Shown here: positions 8,481 to 19,209 of the stretch, piece by piece | Layout of the letters: each line of letters starts with the position of its first letter | Position numbering within the stretch: the stretch's first letter is position 1 | IMG/VR virus record: IMGVR_UViG_2684622670_000013 | Coordinates: 1 to 19,209 of that record | DNA: 19,209 nt | Source of the DNA: a virus | Lineage: Duplodnaviria; Heunggongvirae; Uroviricota; Caudoviricetes | Direction: 5' to 3' (one strand) | The notes under the pieces: model-generated | The model's database searches: none | What the model saw: the letters and a program-made list of their open reading frames with translations, nothing else | Told to the model about the DNA's origin: nothing | Made by a program: the position numbers and the translations under genes

Positions 8481-8759
8481 ATGAAAGCAATTGAACACTC
8501 TTACAAAGAGATGATGCACGCACGATTGGTTGCGAGTGGGTATACCCCAGAAGAAGCAGACAAACTCGTAAACCATGATGAAACAGACTTAGCCGCCGTG
8601 ATAAAGCTAAATTTGGCATATTCTCTATCCCTGTGTAGTTTAGAGAGCACACTCAGGTCCATTGTTGCGTCACCTAAATCAACCTCGGCAGACGCGGTAG
8701 AAGCGATGAAGTTGCTAGTAGAGCTATCAGCACGGCATGAGCACTTATTCAAGTCCTAA
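8481..8759 (+). CDS. Hypothetical small protein (92 aa)
   Basis: ORF with protein-like composition (EEADKLVNHDETDLAAVIK...) and a weak ribosome-binding site. Its 3' end overlaps, on the opposite strand, the 3' end of 8745..9161. Coding status uncertain. Confidence 0.4.
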   Translation: MKAIEHSYKEMMHARLVASGYTPEEADKLVNHDETDLAAVIKLNLAYSLSLCSLESTLRSIVASPKSTSADAVEAMKLLVELSARHEHLFKS

Positions 8760-9161
8760 CTTGTCATGGAGTATTTTTGCAAACAACTTCGTGGCAATCT
8801 GCTTTGCGGCCGCCATAGGGGCTTCTGAAAAATCTTTTTTAATTCTTTCTTGAATTGGATTTTGACTAAGAGCCATGGCAAAGTCATGACCTTCTGATGT
8901 GAGAACAATGTCACATTCACCACCATGAAGTATTCCGTCTCCGCTAAAGTAGATTCCGGTGATATCCTCAAAGGAAGAGTATTTCAACTCTCTATCTCTG
9001 ATAATCCCTTGGTCAACCAGTAGGGTCAGGTGAAAAATTAGCTTAGACAGATCTTCTTGGTTTTTTTCGTAGAAACCTAAATCTCTGATTGTTATGTATG
9101 GTTTATCGGAGGTTAAGAACGTCGACAACACTTCTTTCAGATAGTCATAATCAATTTTCAT
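8745..9161 (-). CDS. Hypothetical protein, 138 aa (possibly DUF2513-like winged-helix protein), last gene of the RHH operon
   Basis: GAAGGA ribosome-binding site. Starts 10 nt after the stop of the upstream RHH gene (9172..9408), implying co-transcription. The DUF2513 resemblance is recalled from the N-terminal pattern MKIDYDYLKEVL and is unverified. Confidence 0.62.
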   Translation of the reverse strand: MKIDYDYLKEVLSTFLTSDKPYITIRDLGFYEKNQEDLSKLIFHLTLLVDQGIIRDRELKYSSFEDITGIYFSGDGILHGGECDIVLTSEGHDFAMALSQNPIQERIKKDFSEAPMAAAKQIATKLFAKILHDKLGLE

Positions 9162-9171
9162 ACGTTGTCCT

Positions 9172-9408
9172 TCACTGTTTGTCCTTGCTGTACATTTTTG
9201 TTAAGGTCTCAAGAAGCGCCTCTTTGAACTTTTCAGCTTCACGAGAAGCGAATTCCTCTTTGCTACTCACATCGTTGGAAACAGCATCAAGGAGAATTTG
9301 AACAATTTCAGCATTCATAGATCTTCTGTTGTTCTTTGCACGCAACCTTATTTTCTCTTTTAACTCATTGGAAACGCGGATATTTATCTGCGGCTCTTCT
9401 CTAGACAT
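9172..9408 (-). CDS. mnt: Mnt-like ribbon-helix-helix repressor
   Basis: 78 aa. Its N-terminus INIRVSNELKEKIRLRAKNNRRSMNAEIVQIL parallels the P22 Mnt/Arc RHH motif (FNFRMP...AEANGRSMNSELLQIV), and the C-terminus LLETLTKMYSK resembles the Mnt C-terminal helix. GGAGG ribosome-binding site 5 nt upstream. Confidence 0.75.
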   Translation of the reverse strand: MSREEPQINIRVSNELKEKIRLRAKNNRRSMNAEIVQILLDAVSNDVSSKEEFASREAEKFKEALLETLTKMYSKDKQ

Positions 9409-9455
9409 GATGCCTCCGTGGTGTAACCGTAATGCAACCTCGTAATATCGTCTTC

Positions 9456-9698
9456 TTACTTGATGTTTACTTCCTTAATGGCTGCAACCTCTCTCTCAAG
9501 AGCTATTAATCTTTCGGTTAAGGAAGAAAGGCTAAGCGAGTGAACATTTTTATTTTCTTCTGCCCATGCACTTAGAGCTGCAACCATTTCTGCATTTAAA
9601 GATCTGCCATTCGCCTCAGCTAACGCGGTTAGGCGATCCTTTATCTCCACAGGAAGTCGAAGATTAACTTGTGGGTTCTTGTACCTGCGTTCAGACAT
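9456..9698 (-). CDS. Arc/Mnt-family ribbon-helix-helix DNA-binding protein (second paralog)
   Basis: 80 aa. VNLRLPVEIKDRLTALAEANGRSLNAEMVAAL matches the Arc-family RHH signature. First gene transcribed leftward from the divergent promoter region. Confidence 0.78.
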   Translation of the reverse strand: MSERRYKNPQVNLRLPVEIKDRLTALAEANGRSLNAEMVAALSAWAEENKNVHSLSLSSLTERLIALEREVAAIKEVNIK

Positions 9699-9803
9699 CA
9701 GCGTATCCTGAATAATTTTTTACCACAGGATATGTAGGTATCTATTGACTATCAATGCGTACCTAAATACTATGTATGCGTACCACATGCAGCGGAGGAT
9801 GCA
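9699..9803. promoter_or_regulatory. Divergent promoter/operator region (Pant-like rightward, Pmnt-like leftward)
   Basis: Candidate rightward promoter: -35 TTGACT (9745-9750), 17 bp spacer, -10 TACTAT (9768-9773), then GGAGG and ATG at 9804. A 13 bp palindrome ATTGA-cta-TCAAT (9744-9756) overlaps the -35. Direct repeats of GCGTACC (9758-9764 and 9778-9784) flank the -10. The repeats could be operator half-sites. Confidence 0.5.
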
Positions 9804-9944
9804 ATGAAGGTAAAAACACTGCGTATGCCAGAGAAGTTAGAAAAAATCCTTGAAGAGAAAGCAAAGGAAGAGTGTCGCTCATTTAGCGCAGAAGTAATTA
9901 AAAGGGTGTTGGACAGCTTGAAAAGAGAGGGGATAACAGTATGA
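9804..9944 (+). CDS. arc: Arc-like ribbon-helix-helix repressor (46 aa)
   Basis: Not in the ORF track (too short). The translation MKVKTLRMPEKLEKILEEKAKEECRSFSAEVIKRVLDSLKREGITV aligns position by position with P22 Arc (...FNLRWPREVLDLVRKVAEENGRSVNSEIYQRVMESFKKEGRIGA). GGAGG ribosome-binding site. Its stop overlaps the next gene's start (ATGA). Confidence 0.72.
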   Translation: MKVKTLRMPEKLEKILEEKAKEECRSFSAEVIKRVLDSLKREGITV

Positions 9945-10144
9945 GTAAAGAATGTTGTTTCTGCGGCATTAGCGAATCAGACGCTGATCAAACATACATT
10001 TACTCTAAAGAAACAGGTCGGATGCTGTGTAGTGACTGCGTGTTGGACATCATAAGATACAAGCATCTTGGATGTTCTGCCAGCATTAGCAATATAGGTG
10101 AAGTATACGAAGGGAAAGATATAACTGATAGAGCAGAAAGTTGA
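9941..10144 (+). CDS. Small zinc-finger protein, ClpX N-terminal C4-type-like (67 aa)
   Basis: CCFCGISE...(17 aa)...CSDCVLDIIR has the CxxC...CxxC spacing and flanking residues of the ClpX-type zinc-binding domain (CSFCGK...CDEC in ClpX). Translationally coupled to the arc-like gene and upstream of the antirepressor. Confidence 0.6.
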   Translation: MSKECCFCGISESDADQTYIYSKETGRMLCSDCVLDIIRYKHLGCSASISNIGEVYEGKDITDRAES

Positions 10145-10207
10145 AGCCCCAACTGCTGTAACAGTCAGGGCTTCGGTATCGTAAAACCACGCATAGGAAT
10201 TAACGAC

Positions 10208-11067
10208 ATGAAAAGTATAGCAACAGCGGTATCTACTATCAACGTGCCATTCCACGGCGCAGAGCTTTATGTTGTCAATCACAACGGCGAACCGTACACC
10301 CCAATGAAACCTATCGTTGAGGGAATGGGCTAGACTGGAAATCTCAACATAAGAAGATTTCTCAACGCTTCTCGAAGGGTATGGTGGAAATCACCATACC
10401 TTCTGCCGGTGGGGTGCAAGCCATGATTTGTATGGCTTTGCGAAAATTGGCAGCTTGGTTGAACAGCATCAGTCCTAACAAAGTCCGCCCTGAAATCCGC
10501 GACAAGGTAATCCAGTATCAGGAAGAGTGTGACGATGTGCTCTACGAGTACTGGACTAAAGGCCATGTGGTTAACCCGCGCAAAGCTAAAAAGACGTTGC
10601 CGGGAAAAATCACCACTGAACAGCAGGAAGCCATTAAACAACTCGTCATGAGTCGCGGTCAGTCTCTGCCAAAAGAAAAACAGGCGAAGGCGATGATCAC
10701 CATGTGGTCGTCACTGAAATCCCATTTTGGATGTTCGTACAAAGAAATCAGTGAGGAGCAGTTTACCGAAGCACTATCACTTGCGGCTCGTATTCCACTT
10801 GAAGGCGAATTCATCGGCAAGTCGGAACATAATGAGATGAGTTGTTTTGATTGGAGGATGAATGTTCATAACCTGAACTCGGCGTGCATTCACCTGGATG
10901 CCATGTACAGAATATGGAGAGACGAAATGGAACCCGCTTTACGATTGCTTGGCTCTCCGGTTGCGGCAAGATTTTACGGAAGAATTGCAGATTGCTATTC
11001 CGTAACTGCAAGCGTTAAGAAAAGTCTGGAGGATGCCGCAGGGCTGAAAGGCTTACAACCATTTTAA
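10208..11067 (+). pseudogene. ant: Phage antirepressor (P22 Ant-type, AR N-terminal domain), apparently disrupted by a 1-nt frameshift near 10327-10330
   Basis: ATG at 10208 encodes MKSIATAVSTINVPFHGAELYVVNHNGEPYTPMKPIVEGMG, then stops at 10331-10333. The next frame continues ...LDWKSQHKKISQRFSKGMVEITIPSAGG... to 11067. Joined, the sequence reads ...KPIVEGMGLDWKSQ..., which is the conserved core of the antirepressor N-terminal domain. The break lies in a GGG run. Confidence 0.62.
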
Positions 11068-11070
11068 CTA

Positions 11071-11089
11071 CCTGCACGAAAAGTGCAGG
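11071..11089 (+). other. Hairpin CCTGCAC-gaaaa-GTGCAGG immediately after the antirepressor stop
   Basis: Perfect 7 bp stem with a 5 nt loop; no following U-run. Forms a tandem pair with the downstream terminator. Confidence 0.4.
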
Positions 11090-11107
11090 TCAATAACCAA
11101 CGCAACG

Positions 11108-11133
11108 ACCCAGCTTCGGCTGGGTTTTTGTTT
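11108..11133 (+). terminator. Rho-independent terminator (ACCCAGC-ttcg-GCTGGGT followed by TTTTGTTT)
   Basis: GC-rich 7 bp stem, TTCG tetraloop, T-rich tract. Lies 40 nt after the antirepressor stop and 12 nt before the ATG at 11146. Confidence 0.72.
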
Positions 11134-11145
11134 AATGGAGAGTAG

Positions 11146-11961
11146 ATGGGCATAATCGATTTAAACACAGCAGACATATTCAATGCTATCGGTGGTGGCT
11201 CTCCGCTTTCGATCATCGACAGCGTTCTGCATCCCCAGTATGTGATTCGTGACAGGGAAACTGGCGAGGTTGCTCTTGAGTTCAGTGGTATGGCATCCGT
11301 ACAGCCAAGTGGAAGGGCGCAAATAACAAACGCTCCGGTGGAGAAAGGGAAATACCAGTCCATCAACAAAGTTAAAGAACCAGCCAGAGTAAGATGCGCA
11401 ATCATCGTAAATGGTCTTACTGGTTTTTCCGGCAATATCCCGAATATTTTCGATCTCACATTCACAAGCCAGAACAGCACGCTGAACACAATCAAAACGA
11501 TGCTGTCCTCTGCAAAAACATACGATATTGAAACGCCAAAGGAAACTCTGGAGAGTTTCGACCTTGTTGACCACTATTACGAAGTTAACTCTCAAAAAGG
11601 GGTGACTCTTCTGACGGTTTATCTTGATTTTCAGGAGGTCATTCAGCAAATGGAGGTTATCCTCTCTAGCTCTCAGTCAGAACAGAAGCCAACGGATAAC
11701 AATAAGTCACAGGGAGATGTAGGAGTTGATCCGCAAATAACCAATGGCGGAGCCAGGGAATCTACTGTCGATGAGCTAAGTGAGTCATGGTCATCACTGA
11801 AGTCATCTGTTGGCGACATCACTGGAAAAATCTCTGACACAATCAAGACTGAATTCCAGAGTGCTCTTGATACGGTGTCCAAACCAATACTCGAAGTTAC
11901 AAACAGCGCAACAAAAAAAGCGGCAGATATTGCAAAAAATATAGTTAAGGCGAGCACATGA
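11146..11961 (+). CDS. Phage tail/baseplate-associated protein, function unknown
   Basis: 271 aa; first gene of the resumed plus-strand late operon. Its stop overlaps the next gene's start. Low-complexity Ser/Thr-rich C-terminus. Confidence 0.6.
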   Translation: MGIIDLNTADIFNAIGGGSPLSIIDSVLHPQYVIRDRETGEVALEFSGMASVQPSGRAQITNAPVEKGKYQSINKVKEPARVRCAIIVNGLTGFSGNIPNIFDLTFTSQNSTLNTIKTMLSSAKTYDIETPKETLESFDLVDHYYEVNSQKGVTLLTVYLDFQEVIQQMEVILSSSQSEQKPTDNNKSQGDVGVDPQITNGGARESTVDELSESWSSLKSSVGDITGKISDTIKTEFQSALDTVSKPILEVTNSATKKAADIAKNIVKAST

Positions 11962-12260
11962 TTACAGTATCTGTTCTTCCCAGCAAATCTCAGTCCATTT
12001 CGGTAAGTCTGGCTGGTCAGCAATGTAATATAAAACTTGTTCAGCGACAGAGTTTTATGTACATGGATTTAACTGTTAATGAAGTCCCAATTATGCAGGG
12101 CGTTCCATGTCTGTATGGGAATAAGATGGTAAGATATTCCTACCTTGGATTTAAGGGAGACCTTATTTTCATTGATAATGATGGGGAATCGGATCCGCAA
12201 TGGGAAGGCTTGGGTAGCCGTTACTTGCTGTATTACATCGAGGAAAACGAGCTTGTATAA
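11958..12260 (+). CDS. Small phage baseplate/tail protein (100 aa), function unknown
   Basis: ORF coupled (ATGA) to the upstream gene; operon context. Confidence 0.55.
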   Translation: MITVSVLPSKSQSISVSLAGQQCNIKLVQRQSFMYMDLTVNEVPIMQGVPCLYGNKMVRYSYLGFKGDLIFIDNDGESDPQWEGLGSRYLLYYIEENELV

Positions 12261-13134
12261 AAATCACAGTCTTCGGTTTGACTTCACGAATGAATCATCA
12301 GCATTTGATAAAAATGGAAACAATAAAATCTCCATCAGAAATGTTAAGTCAACAGTATCCCTGAACTTTGTTACCGGTCGGGGAGGTGCTCAGGCTGATA
12401 TATCTCTTTACGGGTTAGGAATTGAAAGACTTGCTGATATATCAGGGAAGGCTGATGGTATTGTTGGGGAAGGTCAGAAGTTAAATGTTGAGGTATTTGC
12501 TGATGATTCTCTTGTTTTCTCCGGCACGATGCTTTCATCAATAGCAAACATGAATTCTGCTCCTGAAAGCAGTCTGATGATAACAGCCTCTTCTAATGTT
12601 GATTTACAGAACATGCCAGCAAGCCCGTTTACAGCGCAGGGTGCGCAAAGTGTTGAAGATGTCATCTCATCCATTTGTGCAAGTGCAGGTTATGAGGCTG
12701 TGTTTAATAATGTAAAAGGGATGACAACATCAGGAAGTCCGCATTTTGAAGGAAGTGTTTTTGAGCAACTTTATAGGGTCTGTTCAGATTATGGACTGGC
12801 GATGTCAGCCACGCCACCGACAAAAGTAGAGTTCTGGCCTTCAGAAAAAAACAGAGACGATGTAATTCCGTTTATATCCAGAGAATACGGACTTGTTGGA
12901 TATCCTGTATTTTCAAATGGGGGACTGATGTTTCAGACGCAACATTCATCTCTCCTTTGCATTGGAAGATATGTGGATATCAAAACAGAACTACCACATG
13001 CAAGCGGAAGGTATAAGTTAACCTCCGTTCGGCATGAATTATCATCATGGATGCCAAATGGTTCATGGCACTCAATATGTATTGCCGCCAGAACAGCAGA
13101 ACAAAGAGCAGAGGCGCAACAGAATAATGGATAA
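12253..13134 (+). CDS. Baseplate protein (possibly hub-like); start uncertain (TTG 12253, or ATG 12145/12181 overlapping upstream gene)
   Basis: The frame is open from at least 12145, but that start would overlap the previous gene by 116 nt. TTG at 12253 has a GAGG about 10 nt upstream. Ends at 13132-13134, overlapping the next start. Confidence 0.5.
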   Translation: MYKNHSLRFDFTNESSAFDKNGNNKISIRNVKSTVSLNFVTGRGGAQADISLYGLGIERLADISGKADGIVGEGQKLNVEVFADDSLVFSGTMLSSIANMNSAPESSLMITASSNVDLQNMPASPFTAQGAQSVEDVISSICASAGYEAVFNNVKGMTTSGSPHFEGSVFEQLYRVCSDYGLAMSATPPTKVEFWPSEKNRDDVIPFISREYGLVGYPVFSNGGLMFQTQHSSLLCIGRYVDIKTELPHASGRYKLTSVRHELSSWMPNGSWHSICIAARTAEQRAEAQQNNG

Positions 13135-13819
13135 GCAACTATTTACTCCAACGCCTGCTCAGGTAAGTGAGGCTCAATCTCAGGAATATATTTTTGAGAT
13201 GCTGATGTCTGGATATTTCTTCATTGAGTTAGCGAGAGTTCAGGAAGTCAGGGGGGAAGCACCGGATTTAGTTGTTGACGCTCTTCCTTTACTAACCAGA
13301 ACAGACCGTACAGGAAAAATGATTTCTAACTCGGTTTTATATGATCTTCCAGTATGGCGGTTGCAGAGAGGAAACAGCGCTGTAATTATGGACCCTGTGG
13401 CGGGTGATATTGGTCTGATTGCGGTCTGCGACAAAGACACATCACTGGTAAGAAAAAATCGTAAAGAATCAGTACCTGGAAGCAAAAGGCGACACAGTAA
13501 ATCTGATGCAATTTATCTTGGTGGGGTATTAAATATTGCACCTGCTCAATTCATTGAATTTGCTGATGGTGCAATAAACATAACCACGCCTAACCCACTA
13601 AATATTAAATGTTCATCGTTAAATATTGATGCTCCTGATGGAGTCAACATGAATACTCCTTTACTTAAAGTTAGCGGTGATATTCAGGATAACGCAAGTT
13701 CACAGTCATCTACTGTTAAAAATTTAAGGGACAATTATAACAATCACAAACATTCTGTTTCAGGTGTACAAAGTGGTGGGGCAACAATAAATTCCAATGC
13801 AACGGATAAACCGACATGA
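13127..13819 (+). CDS. Baseplate spike / assembly protein (gpV / Mu gp45-like)
   Basis: I prefer the ATG at 13127 (MDKQLF...) over the ORF-track start at 13034. About 230 aa, with a PVAGDIGLIAVCDKD segment resembling the gpV OB-fold region, followed by a Ser/Asn-rich C-terminus. Position fits V-W-J-I order. Confidence 0.55.
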   Translation: MDKQLFTPTPAQVSEAQSQEYIFEMLMSGYFFIELARVQEVRGEAPDLVVDALPLLTRTDRTGKMISNSVLYDLPVWRLQRGNSAVIMDPVAGDIGLIAVCDKDTSLVRKNRKESVPGSKRRHSKSDAIYLGGVLNIAPAQFIEFADGAINITTPNPLNIKCSSLNIDAPDGVNMNTPLLKVSGDIQDNASSQSSTVKNLRDNYNNHKHSVSGVQSGGATINSNATDKPT

Positions 13820-14175
13820 CATACAGAACTATGCAACTGGACACTTCTACGTGGGACTTGACGCTTGACGGAAATGGCAATCTGGCGATCGCAGAAGAAT
13901 CATATTCTGTTGCTCAGGATGTCGCCAGTGCGTGCCTGGTGTTTTCTGGAGAGTGTTATTACGACAATACGCTTGGGATTCCATGGAAGGCAGAAGTTCT
14001 TGGCAGGCGACCATCTCCTGGTTTTATTGCTCAGAAAATGCAGGCTGAAGCACTCAAATTACCCGTCGTTGAGGATGCTCTGGCATCAGTTTTCTTTGAC
14101 AAGAATACACGTACAACTCGCGGCACAATCCGCGTTACAGATATCAATGGTAATATTGCACAGGCCACCTTATGA
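13816..14175 (+). CDS. Baseplate wedge protein (gpW / gp25-like, Mu gp46-like)
   Basis: 119 aa, ATGA-coupled on both sides, located between the V-like and J-like genes. Confidence 0.62.
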   Translation: MTYRTMQLDTSTWDLTLDGNGNLAIAEESYSVAQDVASACLVFSGECYYDNTLGIPWKAEVLGRRPSPGFIAQKMQAEALKLPVVEDALASVFFDKNTRTTRGTIRVTDINGNIAQATL

Positions 14176-15401
14176 CGATATTAAATACGGCTGTTCCTGA
14201 TGTAACCATCACTGAAAACGGTCTTTCAGTTCCCGACATAGCGGATGTGCTGGCGGGAAGACTTACAGACATGTCAACGGTTCTTGGCGGTGGCGCAAGT
14301 CAGTCACTGAGTTCACCGCAAGGTCAGATCGCACAGTCTGACACTGAAATCATTGCTCAGGTATACGACAAGCTTCTTTGTTTGTTTAATCAAATAAACC
14401 CTGACTTCTCAACCGGTAGATTCCAGGACGGGATTGGTCGGATTTACTTTATGGAACGGATCGCTGCTCAGGGGACAGTTGTTACAGCAACATGCATTGG
14501 TCAGGTTGGAACAACAATACCTGCAGGGAGTACCGCTGTGGATACGAGCGGGTATATATATCAGTCAATTGATAATGCTGTAATACCCTCATCAGGCTCT
14601 GTTGATGTGCAGTTTGTCAACACAACAACCGGGCCGATTCCGTGTGCCGCAGGTTCACTGAACCAGATTTATCGAGCCGTTTCCGGGTGGGATGCTGTAA
14701 ATAATACTAGCCCTGGAGTCGTTGGTGTTGATGTTGAATCACGGATCGCCTTTGAAACTCGCCGGAGACAATCAGTTGCCAGAAACAGTCGAAATCAGGA
14801 CGCATCTACATTAGCCGCGTTACTTGCGACTGATGGTGTGCTTGATGCTTACGTATGGTCAAACAGAACTGCAGAAACAGTAAATAAAGGAACAACGAAT
14901 TTCCCTATTCTGGCGCATTCTGTTTATATTTGTGTTTATGGTGGTGCTGATGAGGATGTTGCTGAGTCAATATTCAATACTTATAATCCTGGTGCCAATA
15001 TGAATGGTGATACAACGTTCACTGTTTACGACAACGTTAATTACATGCCTCCATATCCATCATATGTGATGCAATGGCAAAAAGCATCGCCGACGCGAGT
15101 TTACTTTAAGGTTAATATTGATTCATCTCTAAATCCTCCAAGTGACATATCTAAGCAAGTAAAGGGAATAATATCCACAGTGTTCAATGGTGGGTATGAT
15201 GGTATTGGAAAGGCGCGTATTGGATCAACAATAAATGCTGGTAAATATTATTCACCAGTTATTTCAATCAGCCCCGATACAGTAGGTATTTTGTCTCTTG
15301 AAGTGTCTCTGGATGGTTCTCTATACGGTCCGGCTGTTACTATGGGTATAGATCAAGTTCCAACCATTCAGGAATCAGATATAACTGTTACTTTATCGTA
15401 A
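14172..15401 (+). CDS. Baseplate J-like protein (gpJ / Mu gp47 family)
   Basis: 409 aa; size and position match baseplate J proteins. Followed by a gp48/I-like gene and the tail fibre gene. Confidence 0.75.
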   Translation: MTILNTAVPDVTITENGLSVPDIADVLAGRLTDMSTVLGGGASQSLSSPQGQIAQSDTEIIAQVYDKLLCLFNQINPDFSTGRFQDGIGRIYFMERIAAQGTVVTATCIGQVGTTIPAGSTAVDTSGYIYQSIDNAVIPSSGSVDVQFVNTTTGPIPCAAGSLNQIYRAVSGWDAVNNTSPGVVGVDVESRIAFETRRRQSVARNSRNQDASTLAALLATDGVLDAYVWSNRTAETVNKGTTNFPILAHSVYICVYGGADEDVAESIFNTYNPGANMNGDTTFTVYDNVNYMPPYPSYVMQWQKASPTRVYFKVNIDSSLNPPSDISKQVKGIISTVFNGGYDGIGKARIGSTINAGKYYSPVISISPDTVGILSLEVSLDGSLYGPAVTMGIDQVPTIQESDITVTLS

Positions 15402-15412
15402 GAGAGGGCTGT

Positions 15413-16051
15413 ATGTGGGAAGACACAATTCTTACCCAATACTCAGCAAGCAAAAAATTGCTATCTATCATTGATACTTTTGATCAGGCAGTTAACCTTG
15501 ATGATTTCACTGATGAGTTTATTACAAAAGTATGGGATTTGACCACATGTGAAACATTCGGACTAGATATGTGGGGTAAAATAGTTGGAATAAGTCGTTA
15601 TATTAATGCTCCAATAGAAACCAGTTCTTTCGGATTCAGTGAGGCTAATAGTGCGGACATAAATTACCCAACACCTTTCAATGGAGATCCATTTTTTGGT
15701 GGGATACAGGAAACAACGAATGTTAGGCTGAGTGATGATGCTTACAGAACTCTTATATTTTGCAAAGCGTTCACAAACATTAGTATTGCTACAATTCCAG
15801 AAATCAACCGGTTTCTAAAGATATTGTTTTATCAAAGAGGAAGAGCATACTGTGTAAATTATCGTGATATGACAGTAGGAATAACATTCGAGTTTGAACT
15901 TGCACCATACGAAGAATCTATTCTTACGAATTATGATGTAACACCTGTTCCGAGTGGTGTGCTCGTAGGAATAAACCAAGTGGTAAGTCCTTACTTTGGA
16001 TTTTCATCAGATGCTTATCCGTTTAATGATGGTACATTTTACAGAGATTAA
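15413..16051 (+). CDS. Tail protein, gpI / Mu gp48-like (DUF2313, YmfQ-like)
   Basis: 212 aa, GAGGG ribosome-binding site, immediately upstream of the tail fibre gene. Resembles e14 YmfQ-type proteins (from memory). Confidence 0.68.
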   Translation: MWEDTILTQYSASKKLLSIIDTFDQAVNLDDFTDEFITKVWDLTTCETFGLDMWGKIVGISRYINAPIETSSFGFSEANSADINYPTPFNGDPFFGGIQETTNVRLSDDAYRTLIFCKAFTNISIATIPEINRFLKILFYQRGRAYCVNYRDMTVGITFEFELAPYEESILTNYDVTPVPSGVLVGINQVVSPYFGFSSDAYPFNDGTFYRD

Positions 16052-16053
16052 AT

Positions 16054-17250
16054 ATGAATCGTTCAGACGCGCCAAAAAAACAAACTAAACCATTTGGAAT
16101 CAATGGACAGAGGGGGGAGATTTTACCAACAACTCCGTCAGGTGATAATACAGCATCATATGACTTAGGATTTCCTCCAATAACCATGATCCTTAAATCT
16201 GCAGGGGGATTACCACCAAAAGGTCAAGATATGAATCAAATTCTGTTTGAACTATCTTCTCTATGTAGATGGTTTAGTGCAGGAGCAATAAACTCTTTTG
16301 ATAGTGATTTTGCTATCGGTATTAATGGTTATCCAAAATACGCTCTTATAGTTTCAGATGATGGCAGCGCTTTGTATTTGAACACTGTCGATGGAAATAC
16401 TAATAATCCAAACTCAGTAAGTGATGGATGGTTAAATCTTATATCATATTTAGGCATTGATGAAAAACAGGGTAAAAACCAGAACTTAACTGCGTTATCA
16501 TCTCTTTCTGGAATACCGGATGGATTGGCATTTTTTACAGGTGCCGGAACAATGGATATGACAGCGCTGACTCAAAATGGCAGGGAAATTTTAAGTAAAA
16601 AAAACGTATCGGAAACTCTACAATATTTAACACTTGGTGATGGAACAGGAAGGCTTTTGGGGGTTCAGGCATTTGGATCATCTGGGACTTATCACAAATC
16701 ACCTGGTGTAACGAAAATTATAGTGGAAGCCGTTGGTGGAGGTGGTGCCAGTGGTAATTTGTCGGCAACTGCATCTGGTAACTGTGGTGTAAGTGCTGCC
16801 GGTTCCAACGGGTCATATGCTAAAGCATTTTTTTATCAGTCTATACCTGAATCCGTGCAAGTAACTATTGGAAGCGGTGGTGTAGCAGGAACAGGACCAG
16901 GAGGCTCTGGAGGTGACGGTGGGAATACAAGCTTTGGTGATTTGCTTGTATGTCCGGGAGGAAGGGGATCAACTCAAGTTCAGCAGGTACCTCCATTTTC
17001 AGGGGGCAGTGCAACAGAAGCATCAATTCCTACAGGGCAAGGGATTCTGTTCCATTCAGTTTCACGATCAAATTTATGTGGGGCACTTGGACTTGGTGAT
17101 GATCAGGCGATTGGCATTGAAAGTATAACCACTACTATGCTTGGGACATACGGTATTGGCGGGACAGGTAAATACAATAAGGCGTCATCAGGTCCAGCGA
17201 CAGGAAATAATGGAAATCAGGGATATATTCTTGTGTGGGAGTATCAGTAA
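16054..17250 (+). CDS. Tail fibre protein with glycine-rich C-terminal domain
   Basis: 398 aa. Start is 2 nt after the upstream stop. C-terminal half is strongly Gly-rich (VEAVGGGGASGN...VTIGSGGVAGTGPGGSGGDGGNTSFG...GIGGTGKYNK). AT-rich compared with the upstream tail genes. Confidence 0.72.
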   Translation: MNRSDAPKKQTKPFGINGQRGEILPTTPSGDNTASYDLGFPPITMILKSAGGLPPKGQDMNQILFELSSLCRWFSAGAINSFDSDFAIGINGYPKYALIVSDDGSALYLNTVDGNTNNPNSVSDGWLNLISYLGIDEKQGKNQNLTALSSLSGIPDGLAFFTGAGTMDMTALTQNGREILSKKNVSETLQYLTLGDGTGRLLGVQAFGSSGTYHKSPGVTKIIVEAVGGGGASGNLSATASGNCGVSAAGSNGSYAKAFFYQSIPESVQVTIGSGGVAGTGPGGSGGDGGNTSFGDLLVCPGGRGSTQVQQVPPFSGGSATEASIPTGQGILFHSVSRSNLCGALGLGDDQAIGIESITTTMLGTYGIGGTGKYNKASSGPATGNNGNQGYILVWEYQ

Positions 17251-17456
17251 TGAGCGATATTTATGCAGTCGTACAAAATGGTGTCGTTACAAATCTTGTT
17301 GTATGGGATGGTAAGTCAGAGTTTAAGCAAGAAAAAGCGGATATAGTTAAATGTGTTGGAGATGTTGGTATTGGCTGGTTATATGATGGTAAAAAATTCA
17401 TCAAGCCCTCCTTAAAACCAGATGTAGTTACTCCTCAAGATGAGTTAGTCAGTTAA
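17250..17456 (+). CDS. Small protein downstream of tail fibre (68 aa), possible tail fibre assembly/chaperone fragment
   Basis: I prefer the ATG at 17250 (MSDIYAVVQNG...), which has a GGGAG ribosome-binding site and overlaps the fibre gene stop, over the ORF-track start at 17235. It is much shorter than typical tail fibre assembly proteins. Confidence 0.45.
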   Translation: MSDIYAVVQNGVVTNLVVWDGKSEFKQEKADIVKCVGDVGIGWLYDGKKFIKPSLKPDVVTPQDELVS

Positions 17457-17465
17457 TTGTTAGTA

Positions 17466-17499
17466 CGCTGGAGATTTTGATAATTTCCAGCGCATTTTT
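17466..17499 (+). terminator. Terminator-like hairpin (CGCTGGA...TCCAGCG) followed by CATTTTT
   Basis: 7 bp GC-containing stem extended by A-T pairs, then a T-run, 10 nt downstream of the last plus-strand tail gene. Confidence 0.5.
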
Positions 17500-17745
17500 C
17501 CTTCTGCAGTAATGGATGAAATACCGCGAGTATAATGTTTTTATGCATATGAACCGTTTAAACCAGAGGAGTCCTGACGAAATTGGTTATTGCGCCGAGA
17601 GTTGTCGGAGGGGGGTGATATAGGTTATCTAATGGAGTAATCATTTTAACATTAATCAGTTTCCCCATGACATCCTCTAAACCCTATATAAACGATTTCC
17701 TGCTACTGGCATTCAAACGAAATAATTTGAAAGCAATTTAAAGAT

Positions 17746-18021
17746 TTATTTGTCTAATGTTGGAAGCCGCGGCACGTCGTATGCAAGAACGTGCCGCGGT
17801 TGGCTGGTAAACTTTTCGATAGCACGAGTATTGAATGATTTCCAGCCGTTACCGATTTTACATGTTAATACTTCCACATCATTTAAACGGTTTGTAAGTT
17901 CCTGGTAGGTAATTCTCCCGTTAACATGCCTATGGCGCCGTTTGGTTTCAGGCTTATCTTTTTTTGCGTAATAAAAGGTGAGACAAAAATGAGACACACA
18001 ACGCTTTGTACTGGATTGCAA
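17746..18021 (-). CDS. Hypothetical small ORF downstream of integrase (91 aa), coding status doubtful
   Basis: Only ORF in the junction. Basic, Cys/His/Arg-rich composition; contains the 11 bp palindrome; no recognisable motif. Confidence 0.25.
   Translation of the reverse strand: MQSSTKRCVSHFCLTFYYAKKDKPETKRRHRHVNGRITYQELTNRLNDVEVLTCKIGNGWKSFNTRAIEKFTSQPRHVLAYDVPRLPTLDK
17767..17799. repeat. Perfect 11 bp inverted repeat CCGCGGCACGT-(11 nt)-ACGTGCCGCGG
   Basis: Read directly from the sequence. Lies in the tail-fibre/integrase junction, inside the 3' end of the weak minus-strand ORF 17746..18021. Confidence 0.6.
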
Positions 18022-18051
18022 GGCTTTGTGCCATTCGATAGTTAAGGTGGA

Positions 18052-19209
18052 TCACTCCACCTTTTCATCAAGCCAGTCCGCCCACCACTGCATCATTTCT
18101 CTGCGCTTATCGAGATACTGAGCATGGTTGTAAATTCCACGCACAGAACCGCCGTTGGCATGTGCCAGTTGCACTTCAATAGCATCAGCGGGCCATTCGT
18201 GCTCGTTCATAATCGTGCTGAATTCATGCCTGAATCCGTGACCGCTTTCCAGACCCTCATATCCGATTTGTTTGATCACAAGTAGCACTGCGTTCTCACA
18301 GATTGGCTTCTTCTTATCGTTGCGCCCGGCAAAAACAAACTCTGATACTGGTTTGGTGATTGAGATTAGCGTAGTGAGAAGTTCAACTACTTGGTCTGAC
18401 ATAGGAACCACATGAATTTTGCGTCCCTTCATCACACTGGCGTCAATGGTGATAATCCTGTTTTCAAAATCGACGTTCTTCCATAGCATGGAACGAAGCT
18501 CTTTCGTTCTTAGGGCTGTGTAGCGTAAAACTTTGGTCGCAATGAGCGATACGATACTTCCTGAAAATGTTGCCAGTGCTTTGTTGAATGCCGGGAGCTG
18601 GTCTGCAGGAAGAAACGGGAAGTTCTTCTTGCGGTATCCTTTCATGGCGTCTGCAAGGTCAGGTGCCGGGTTATATTTAGCCCTTCCGGTGACAATAGCG
18701 TAACGGAAAACCTCGCCGCATCTTCTGCGTGCTTTGTTGGCTCGCTCCATTGCACCGCGATCTTCAAACCTGCGGATTACTTCAAGAAGTTGCATCGGCT
18801 CAATATCCTGAATTTCAAGGCTGCCGATGATAGGTAAAATGTCGTCATCAAACATTTTTGCAAGTTCATTTGCATAGCCTACCGACCAAACTTGCTTCTT
18901 GTGCTCGTACCATTCCTTGTAAACTGCACTAAAGGAATTGTTGTTAGACGAAGCCTTTTTCGCCTTTACCGGATCTATGCCAACCGAGATGTCTTTCCTC
19001 GCAGTCCATGCTTTATCCCTTGCCTCCTGCAAAGTCATAAGCGGATATTTTCCGACAGTCAGGATTTTCTCCTTACCGTCAATCTTGTAGCGAAGCTGCC
19101 AGACCTTTTTTCCAGATACAGGGACATAAAGGTACAGACCATTACCATCAACAAGTCGGTATGGTTTCTCTTTCGGCTTTGCCGCTTCAATCTGTTTAAC
19201 GGTGAGCAT
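18052..19209 (-). CDS. int: Tyrosine site-specific integrase (P4-type)
   Basis: 385 aa. N-terminus MLTVKQIEAAKPKEKPYRLVDGNGLYLYVPVSGKKVWQLRYKIDG is the characteristic P4-family arm-binding region. The C-terminal catalytic domain has ...GHGFRHEFST... and ...AHANGGSVRGIYNHAQY (candidate catalytic Tyr). The start codon is the last three bases of the window (reverse complement of ...gagcat). Confidence 0.9.
   Translation of the reverse strand: MLTVKQIEAAKPKEKPYRLVDGNGLYLYVPVSGKKVWQLRYKIDGKEKILTVGKYPLMTLQEARDKAWTARKDISVGIDPVKAKKASSNNNSFSAVYKEWYEHKKQVWSVGYANELAKMFDDDILPIIGSLEIQDIEPMQLLEVIRRFEDRGAMERANKARRRCGEVFRYAIVTGRAKYNPAPDLADAMKGYRKKNFPFLPADQLPAFNKALATFSGSIVSLIATKVLRYTALRTKELRSMLWKNVDFENRIITIDASVMKGRKIHVVPMSDQVVELLTTLISITKPVSEFVFAGRNDKKKPICENAVLLVIKQIGYEGLESGHGFRHEFSTIMNEHEWPADAIEVQLAHANGGSVRGIYNHAQYLDKRREMMQWWADWLDEKVE

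Follow-up and report, generated by a model that had tools for sequence, protein, structure and literature searches.

We examined a 19,209-nucleotide stretch of DNA from a virus of the Caudoviricetes (IMG/VR record IMGVR_UViG_2684622670_000013, positions 1 to 19,209; hereafter the window), which encodes a 67-residue mini-protein at 9941-10144, inside a P22-type immunity module (immI), between the gene of the repressor Arc and the terminator of the antisense RNA sar. We are nearly certain that this open reading frame (ORF) is a real gene. Very likely, it is exchangeable cargo of the module, and thus neither a part of the core immunity circuit nor a regulator specific to the antirepressor Ant. 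It is also fairly likely that the mini-protein shares its fold or ancestry with the zinc-binding domain (ZBD) at the N-terminus of ClpX. The best explanation overall, which we hold tentatively and rate somewhat short of probable, is that a real zinc-ribbon gene is carried as exchangeable cargo and that its product acts as a stand-alone protein-binding module, with the ligands of the ClpX N-domain as the favoured class of targets.

The protein family itself is already present in databases, as phrog_7150, as records named 'hypothetical protein' and, for its Salmonella branch, under an automatic UniRef label. What is new is the occurrence of a known domain type as a free mini-protein in a defined and exchangeable slot of a classic regulatory module. 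In our literature searches, we came across no paper on the function of free phage proteins that resemble the ClpX N-domain, and no description of the slot turned up in them, although none was aimed at the slot specifically. Whatever the function of its contents, this slot provides a phage regulatory region that is among the best studied with a defined accessory-gene site.

A small zinc-ribbon gene coupled to arc

The mini-protein (MSKECCFCGISESDADQTYIYSKETGRMLCSDCVLDIIRYKHLGCSASISNIGEVYEGKDITDRAES, 67 residues) displays the C4 arrangement of ClpX (C-x2-C ... C-x2-C), made by C5/C8 and C30/C33, plus an additional cysteine, C6. Judged from its sequence, it would be a small zinc-ribbon (treble-clef) protein, predicted to bind zinc and to fold like the ClpX domain. 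It is encoded by a stand-alone ORF that is not N-terminal to any ClpX AAA+ unfoldase. The original prediction, an earlier reading of the window, had described this ORF as overlapping an arc-like gene, and both points are confirmed: the start codon (ATG, 9941-9943) shares bases with the stop codon of the upstream gene (TGA, 9942-9944) in an ATGA overlap, and that gene is indeed arc (Table 1). A Shine-Dalgarno sequence, GAGGGG, lies within the 3' end of arc, 8 nucleotides from the ATG. At the other end, the final 6 nucleotides of the ORF form the 3' tail of sar, the terminator stem of which begins directly past the stop codon, and 63 nucleotides separate the stop codon from the start of ant.

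Is this ORF a gene? The strongest argument comes from P22-like prophages of Salmonella, which carry a 68-residue relative (P0014, P0019) about 35% identical to the window mini-protein and in the same gene order, that is arc, a 4-nucleotide overlap, the 68-residue ORF, the sar terminator and ant. Beyond the first 27 nucleotides, the DNA of the two ORFs is only about 50% identical. Yet frame 1 is free of stops in both, the remaining frames containing 3-9 stops, and the similarity between the two frame-1 proteins exceeds that obtained in 2000 of 2000 shuffles. Thus, because a relative in the same slot keeps an open frame and protein similarity despite such low DNA identity, the ORF qualifies as a real gene. 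The mini-protein also matches phrog_7150 from end to end (E 3.4e-50), and an identical protein is found on at least 1000 public contigs, from E. coli and a few Salmonella, where its label is always 'hypothetical protein'. RefSeq PGAP makes no call for this ORF and leaves the gap unannotated.

Phage CUS-3 provides another example of how the region has been read in the past. There (L001, CP000711 6505-6986), the mini-protein is 100% identical and both the 46-residue Arc and the 67-residue ORF are intact. The GenBank record annotates the stretch spanning arc and the mini-ORF just as 'bsq2; boundary sequence', and a 2008 comparison of the 'ant moron' at the level of whole genes concluded that CUS-3 is without arc (PMC2629481). 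We correct this record here: arc is present in CUS-3, and so is the mini-ORF, both having been overlooked in 2008.

The cysteines are kept across the family, as the original prediction required of a genuine zinc ribbon. In fact, C6, C8, C30 and C33 do not vary among 20 family members, and neither do E4, F7, G9, K23, T25, I37, Y40 and K41. Three observations nevertheless weigh against a conserved and functional protein. First, C5 is replaced by Tyr in two rare variants among these 20 members. Second, two Salmonella alleles that differ at 17 positions show a ratio of nonsynonymous to synonymous substitution rates (dN/dS) of about 1.2, with no difference in nucleotides 56-143. We regard this ratio as uninformative, and the stretch without differences may result from recombination; the E. 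coli haplotypes, with about five differing sites, are too alike to inform on selection. Third, the O157:H7-type copy is frameshifted by one additional T in a T-run, which destroys the first Cys pair (L002 and 12 IMG/VR loci).

One may thus ask whether the product matters at all. The ORF could serve through its translation only, relaying ribosomes from arc toward the sar-target/ant leader, or it could be a neutral or decaying passenger. In phage P1, the 73-residue icd overlaps ant1 by 4 nucleotides and carries the annotation 'apparently required for expression of ant', and a dispensable product would fit with the dN/dS of the Salmonella alleles, the frameshifted O157-type copy and the ORF left uncalled by RefSeq PGAP. 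The two immunity regions are indeed alike in having a small ORF immediately 5' of the antirepressor gene, a 4-nucleotide overlap and control by an antisense RNA. However, icd overlaps ant itself, whereas the window ORF overlaps arc and lies 63 nucleotides upstream of ant, a distance that makes direct coupling to ant unlikely. Moreover, at about 35% protein identity, where the DNA is saturated, four cysteines are kept, as are K23, T25 and I37 of the core; the slot repeatedly holds the same C4 fold, in five or six sequence types; and P22 copes with arc alone. Because the ORF stops so far ahead of ant and its cysteines are conserved, a role in translation only, or no role, is improbable. Homology to Icd itself was considered and rejected since the Icd sequence is without the C4 motif and shows no evident similarity; the architecture is analogous only.

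An exhaustive phmmer search of 1.84 billion representative sequences returned 13 matches, the sole genuine one being the 68-residue Salmonella protein P0014. The other 12 are long proteins, all of which we judged to be spurious; the three that we inspected contain TPR or Ig repeats, and owe their scores to the addition of numerous weak stretches ('AASFNNLGEVYRNKG' versus 'CSASISNIGEVYEGKD').

A cargo slot between arc and the sar terminator

To define what ends at the sar terminator, we used the terminator sequence (AGCCCCAACTGCNNNAACAGTCAGGGCT) as an anchor in IMG/VR, which yielded at least 120 loci (L132-L251), 111 of them evaluable; the counts below refer to these listed loci. In 63 of the 111, Arc itself abuts the terminator, which is the P22 arrangement, and arc is missing from 5. 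The remaining 43 carry cargo: a C4 mini-ORF in 24 (5 of which are truncated copies) and one of four unrelated small ORFs in 19. The C4 mini-ORFs belong to the window type or to types of 63 (L159), 61 (L138), 60 (L186) and 74 residues (L176), the Salmonella type being a sixth C4 sequence type. The unrelated ORFs encode proteins of 57 (phrog_17642), 73 (phrog_11805), 89 (phrog_27312, membrane/coiled-coil) and 80 residues.

All types of cargo share the same junctions when aligned to window positions 9905-9944 and 10127-10178. On the left, the 3' end of arc reads ...CTGAAGAGAGAGGGG.T..CGGT followed by [A/G]TGA and keeps the Shine-Dalgarno sequence; on the right, a TGA lies immediately 5' of AGCCCC. 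The slot is thus bounded by the arc stop codon, with the Shine-Dalgarno sequence inside arc, and by the sar terminator. Because this slot swaps its contents and the mini-protein gene pairs with at least four antirepressor types, the gene is best viewed as exchangeable cargo.

The original prediction had further suggested that the mini-protein regulates the activity or stability of the antirepressor, and this part fared poorly. A dedicated modulator of immI, binding Ant, Arc or the target repressor, would suit a gene whose place is always between arc and ant, which is transcribed along with the two and coupled to arc in translation. However, intact copies precede at least four N-terminal types of antirepressor, namely P22_AR_N variants plus two others that were not compared with domain libraries. 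P22 and the 63 P22-like modules do without any slot gene, and unrelated ORFs substitute for it elsewhere. In the window itself, ant is frameshifted while arc and the mini-protein ORF are intact. Given these varied Ant types, a block conserved between mosaic junctions that consists of the 3' half of arc, the ORF and the sar terminator, and an ant gene that is broken next to an intact ORF, a dedicated Ant regulator is quite improbable.

Some copies of the ClpX-type slot gene whose products pass the Pfam threshold are inactivated (L257 1501-1680; L218): in one allele, CSFC*K, the Gly that follows the first Cys pair is replaced by a stop codon, and another copy is a 5'-truncated remnant of 40 residues. 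Slot cargo therefore decays repeatedly.

A probable kinship with the ClpX N-domain and possible targets

How close is the mini-protein to ClpX? The label 'ClpX-type', as given in the original prediction, stands in part. The window mini-protein does not itself qualify as a member of the Pfam family zf-C4_ClpX (PF06689), as judged by sequence scores that reach at most 13 bits for a gathering threshold of 27 bits. A chain of intermediates nevertheless leads from it to ClpX. The most telling of these is the slot protein of locus L186 (MNKEDGFKCSFCGKPQHECAMLIRAKAEIFICSSCVSLCVEAM...), which scores 43 bits against zf-C4_ClpX and is by its sequence an unambiguous ClpX-type zinc finger: it aligns with ClpX at 97.6% probability in hhalign, with 44% identity over 41 residues, and matches the NCBIfam model at 2e-8. 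Like the window type, it is found in this slot, shares its junctions and has a comparable size. Both the window mini-protein (6.7e-5) and the L186 protein (1e-7) match phrog_5259 over the same region, and phrog_7150 is matched in turn by the L159 protein and by P0019; these shared matches make up the chain. The phrog_5259 and L186-type families are annotated as being of 'unknown function'.

Other comparisons point in the same direction. Against 60 distinct gammaproteobacterial ClpX N-domains, the family reaches 71-74% probability in hhalign (P 2.8e-5 to 3.6e-5, 33 columns). For all relatives, zf-C4_ClpX is the only or the top Pfam match (E 0.0015 to 0.75), and ClpX is likewise their only or top NCBIfam match. 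When the family profile was compared with the PDB sequence set, ClpX was the sole match (6vfs, E 0.74), and the UniRef entry of the Salmonella relative bears the name 'ClpX-type ZB domain-containing protein', an automatic domain label. Compared with the ClpX N-domain (PF06689; PDB 1OVX, 2DS5-8), the C4 motif shares the signatures 'C-x-F-C-G' and '[IL]-C-x-x-C-V', and structure modelling predicts a beta-hairpin, strands and a C-terminal helix in the mini-protein. The differences are that the mini-protein is a free protein of 67 residues without AAA+ module and that it ends in a 25-residue tail modelled with low confidence.

A number of results speak against the kinship. The full-length mini-protein has no zf-C4_ClpX match in Pfam at E<=1, its N-terminal 42 residues reach 11.9 bits, and 10.2 and 13.2 bits are obtained for the Salmonella relatives, all below the cut-off; NCBIfam gives no match for the window protein. 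The spacer between C8 and C30 counts 21 residues versus 18 in E. coli ClpX and is thus 3 longer. The structure models are of middling confidence (predicted local distance difference test, pLDDT, 62 and 71). Foldseek found no match in the PDB at E<=0.001, and ClpX was absent from the results for the second model, that of the Salmonella type, for which 4 of 40 work units returned results. In addition, BLASTP aligned just 11 residues with the E. coli ClpX N-domain, and a direct hhalign comparison between the window group and the L186 group is weak (25%, P 7.6e-4). We still rate a fold or ancestry of the ClpX ZBD type as fairly likely because of the chain of intermediates and because the L186 type sits in the same slot. 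A phmmer match in the PDB to the RING finger of RNF4 (E 0.005) was rejected as homology, being made of two weak half-site matches.

The mini-protein might instead bind nucleic acids. Its size and its C-x2-C...C-x2-C motif recall small zinc-finger transcription factors of phages, such as activators of the Ogr/Delta type. However, with E values of up to 10 allowed, Pfam matched neither Ogr_Delta nor any family of DNA-binding zinc fingers. The mini-protein also looks acidic to neutral from its sequence, without an obvious basic surface, and the modules that it matches best (treble-clef, RING and ZZ) bind proteins. A nucleic-acid-binding regulator is therefore very improbable.

Assuming instead that the mini-protein binds proteins, when would it be made? 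The gene would be transcribed from the Pant-like promoter together with arc, and its translation would be coupled to that of arc. If P22 biology is a guide, Mnt would repress it in lysogens and Arc would do so after the first minutes of infection. With such P22-type repression by Mnt and Arc, the cargo would be expressed in a short burst, right after infection or upon loss of Mnt repression. The mini-protein probably serves as a small accessory factor that binds other proteins and is produced in a burst upon infection.

In ClpX, the N-domain is where the adaptors SspB and RssB dock, and it also recognises some of the substrates, MuA and FtsZ among them (PMC7226468, PMC5415555). A stand-alone version of this module would favour the same ligands, namely SspB and RssB as adaptors, and lambda-O-, MuA- or FtsZ-type substrates. 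By titrating these ligands, the mini-protein would act as a decoy and transiently block N-domain-dependent recognition by ClpXP. This is the mechanism that we prefer, and one that the original prediction had raised, while regarding it as doubtful. Thibault et al. reportedly found in 2006 that the isolated ZBD inhibits in trans, a finding that we do not count as evidence.

The decoy mechanism could be extended to the slot as a whole. We envision, as an unlikely and more speculative proposal, a hot-swappable site for early-burst mini-proteins of host takeover or counter-defence, in which ClpX N-domain decoys, as a diversified family, would be the most frequent cargo. Such decoys would transiently blind ClpXP to its adaptor-dependent and N-domain-dependent substrates. 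The possible gain for the phage would be that its replication or regulatory proteins are stabilised, or that toxin-antitoxin or abortive-infection responses triggered by proteases are stopped. Phages are equipped with proteins that act on host proteolysis, for example the Lon inhibitors PinA of T4 and gp4.5 of T7, and the ClpC adaptor Gp53 of SPO1. If true, temperate phages would use ClpX N-domain decoys to adjust proteolysis in the host at infection or induction, in a manner that is new, and the decoys would be a simple natural tool to separate adaptor-dependent from direct ClpXP recognition.

In the main rival reading, the ClpX-like fold would have been put to a different use. CsfB (Gin) of B. 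subtilis is also a free and small treble-clef zinc finger, dimeric and structurally nearest to the ClpX N-terminal domain, and it is an anti-sigma factor, a precedent for direct protein inhibition whose authors doubt that the two share partners (PMC5890618). This precedent is a further point against ClpX ligands as targets. The fold may thus be, by analogy, just a handy small binding scaffold, and the mini-protein a small, probably dimeric zinc finger that inhibits another host, prophage or defence protein, as a cargo of the early burst that serves takeover or counter-defence and has no relation to ClpXP. In keeping with this, Pfam Gin (PF10764) is the second match of the L138 slot protein (E 0.097), the window mini-protein has strongly diverged from ClpX, and unrelated small proteins also occupy the slot, as in a generic accessory-gene site. 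Pfam Gin gives no match for the window mini-protein itself. The identity of the L186 type to the ClpX ZBD suggests on the contrary that ClpX-like surfaces are kept, at least in that type. The PADLOC defence models match neither the window mini-protein nor its Salmonella relative P0019, the PADLOC library being without coverage of anti-defence genes. We therefore consider a target unrelated to ClpXP possible but unlikely.

The surrounding module and its mobility

The features of the immunity module are collected in Table 1.

Table 1. Features of the immI region in the window
Feature	Coordinates	Strand	Basis
Second tandem ribbon-helix-helix gene, 78 residues	9172..9408	-	Pfam Arc 46.6 bits; annotated mnt in CUS-3
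Ribbon-helix-helix repressor gene at the mnt position, 80 residues	9456..9698	-	Pfam Arc 40.9 bits; annotated mnt in CUS-3
Divergent Pmnt-like promoter, overlaps the Pant-like promoter	9727..9755	-	Consensus scan
Pant-like sigma-70 promoter, TTGACT-17-TACTAT	9745..9773	+	Consensus scan; position as P22 Pant
arc, ribbon-helix-helix repressor gene, 46 residues	9804..9944	+	Pfam PF03869, 33.5 bits; PGAP 'Arc family DNA-binding protein' in the near-identical locus L003
Shine-Dalgarno sequence of the mini-protein gene, GAGGGG, within the 3' end of arc	9927..9932	+	Read from the sequence; kept by the left junction of all cargo types
Mini-protein gene (phrog_7150), cargo of the arc-sar slot	9941..10144	+	67-residue C4 zinc-ribbon ORF
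sar antisense RNA, full length	10139..10206	-	Rfam RF00262, 82.3 bits (gathering score 43), E 1.9e-17
ant, P22_AR_N antirepressor gene, disrupted	10208..11067	+	Pfam; alignment with the intact CUS-3 and L003 copies
Psar-like promoter within the 5' end of ant, TTGATA-17-TATACT with TG	10214..10242	-	Consensus scan; position as P22 Psar
Terminator-like hairpin after ant	11107..11126	+	Sequence scan

The module has the composition of a P22-type immI, with Arc, sar and a P22_AR_N antirepressor in the order arc-sar-ant, a divergent ribbon-helix-helix gene on the mnt side, and divergent promoters, all placed as in P22. The original prediction makes no mention of sar. It differs from P22 first of all by the additional gene between arc and the sar terminator. 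In P22, arc (14861-15022) is followed directly by sar (15021-15090) and by ant (from 15091), in agreement with the original prediction that nothing lies between arc and ant there. Other differences are the Arc protein of the window, which counts 46 residues and ends in ...SLKREGITV, and the two tandem ribbon-helix-helix genes on the mnt side in place of one in P22; neither of the two matches Pfam Repressor_Mnt. Finally, the window module lies in a myovirus-type tail cluster and its ant is frameshifted.

The lesion in ant is a 1-nucleotide deletion in a G-run (10327-10329), GGG in the window versus GGGG in CUS-3 and E. coli E200086, which leads to a TAG at 10331-10333 and leaves a remaining frame at 10381-11067. 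The gene is thereby split into pieces of 41 and 228 residues, the two fragments scoring 83 and 34 bits against P22_AR_N. The disruption could be that of a pseudogene, or it could be a homopolymer sequencing error. The gene is also mosaic, its C-terminal third being unlike that of CUS-3 Ant.

The module is embedded in different kinds of phage. In the window, it is inserted within the tail/baseplate cluster of a myovirus-type prophage (1588-19209), among DUF3383 sheath-like, E217 gp32-like, Dit-like and baseplate J proteins, and an IntS-type integrase gene (18052-19209, minus strand) closes the cluster. In P22-like phages, it lies between gene 16 and the tailspike gene, and in O157:H7 among lambdoid tail genes. 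Thus, the same moron is present in podovirus, siphovirus and myovirus backbones, and the module moves between phage types.

The O157:H7-type module, in a lambdoid prophage of E. coli beside nleL (L002 2389-2801), is decayed, with a shortened Arc, a zinc-ribbon remnant of 40 residues and an antirepressor whose N-terminus is of another type. Partial matches of this kind are present in about 500 complete E. coli genomes, the copies inspected being L002 and the 12 IMG/VR loci.

In P22-like prophages of Salmonella, as well as in the E. coli phages phiv205-1, EC.P3, E212 and PhiR12, mnt is directly followed by a gene for a 178-residue ClpP-family protein (Pfam CLP_protease, 45 bits; minus strand at 2967-3503 in L005-L010; 2501-3037 in L130). 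This gene is annotated 'head maturation protease' in one record despite its position in the immunity region. We considered this ClpP-like protein as a functional partner of the ClpX-like one and dropped the idea because a 98-99% identical copy occurs in six E. coli phages without the zinc-ribbon gene. At its left end (31-1557, plus strand), the window contains a gene for an IS66-family transposase (DDE_Tnp_IS66, 344 bits), and its similarity to related prophages begins at about 1588. The ant moron of CUS-3 also contains, downstream of its mnt genes, the gene ECRS218_0008 (L001 4183-4602, minus strand), which encodes a YafO-toxin-like protein (Pfam YafO_toxin, 43.6 bits).

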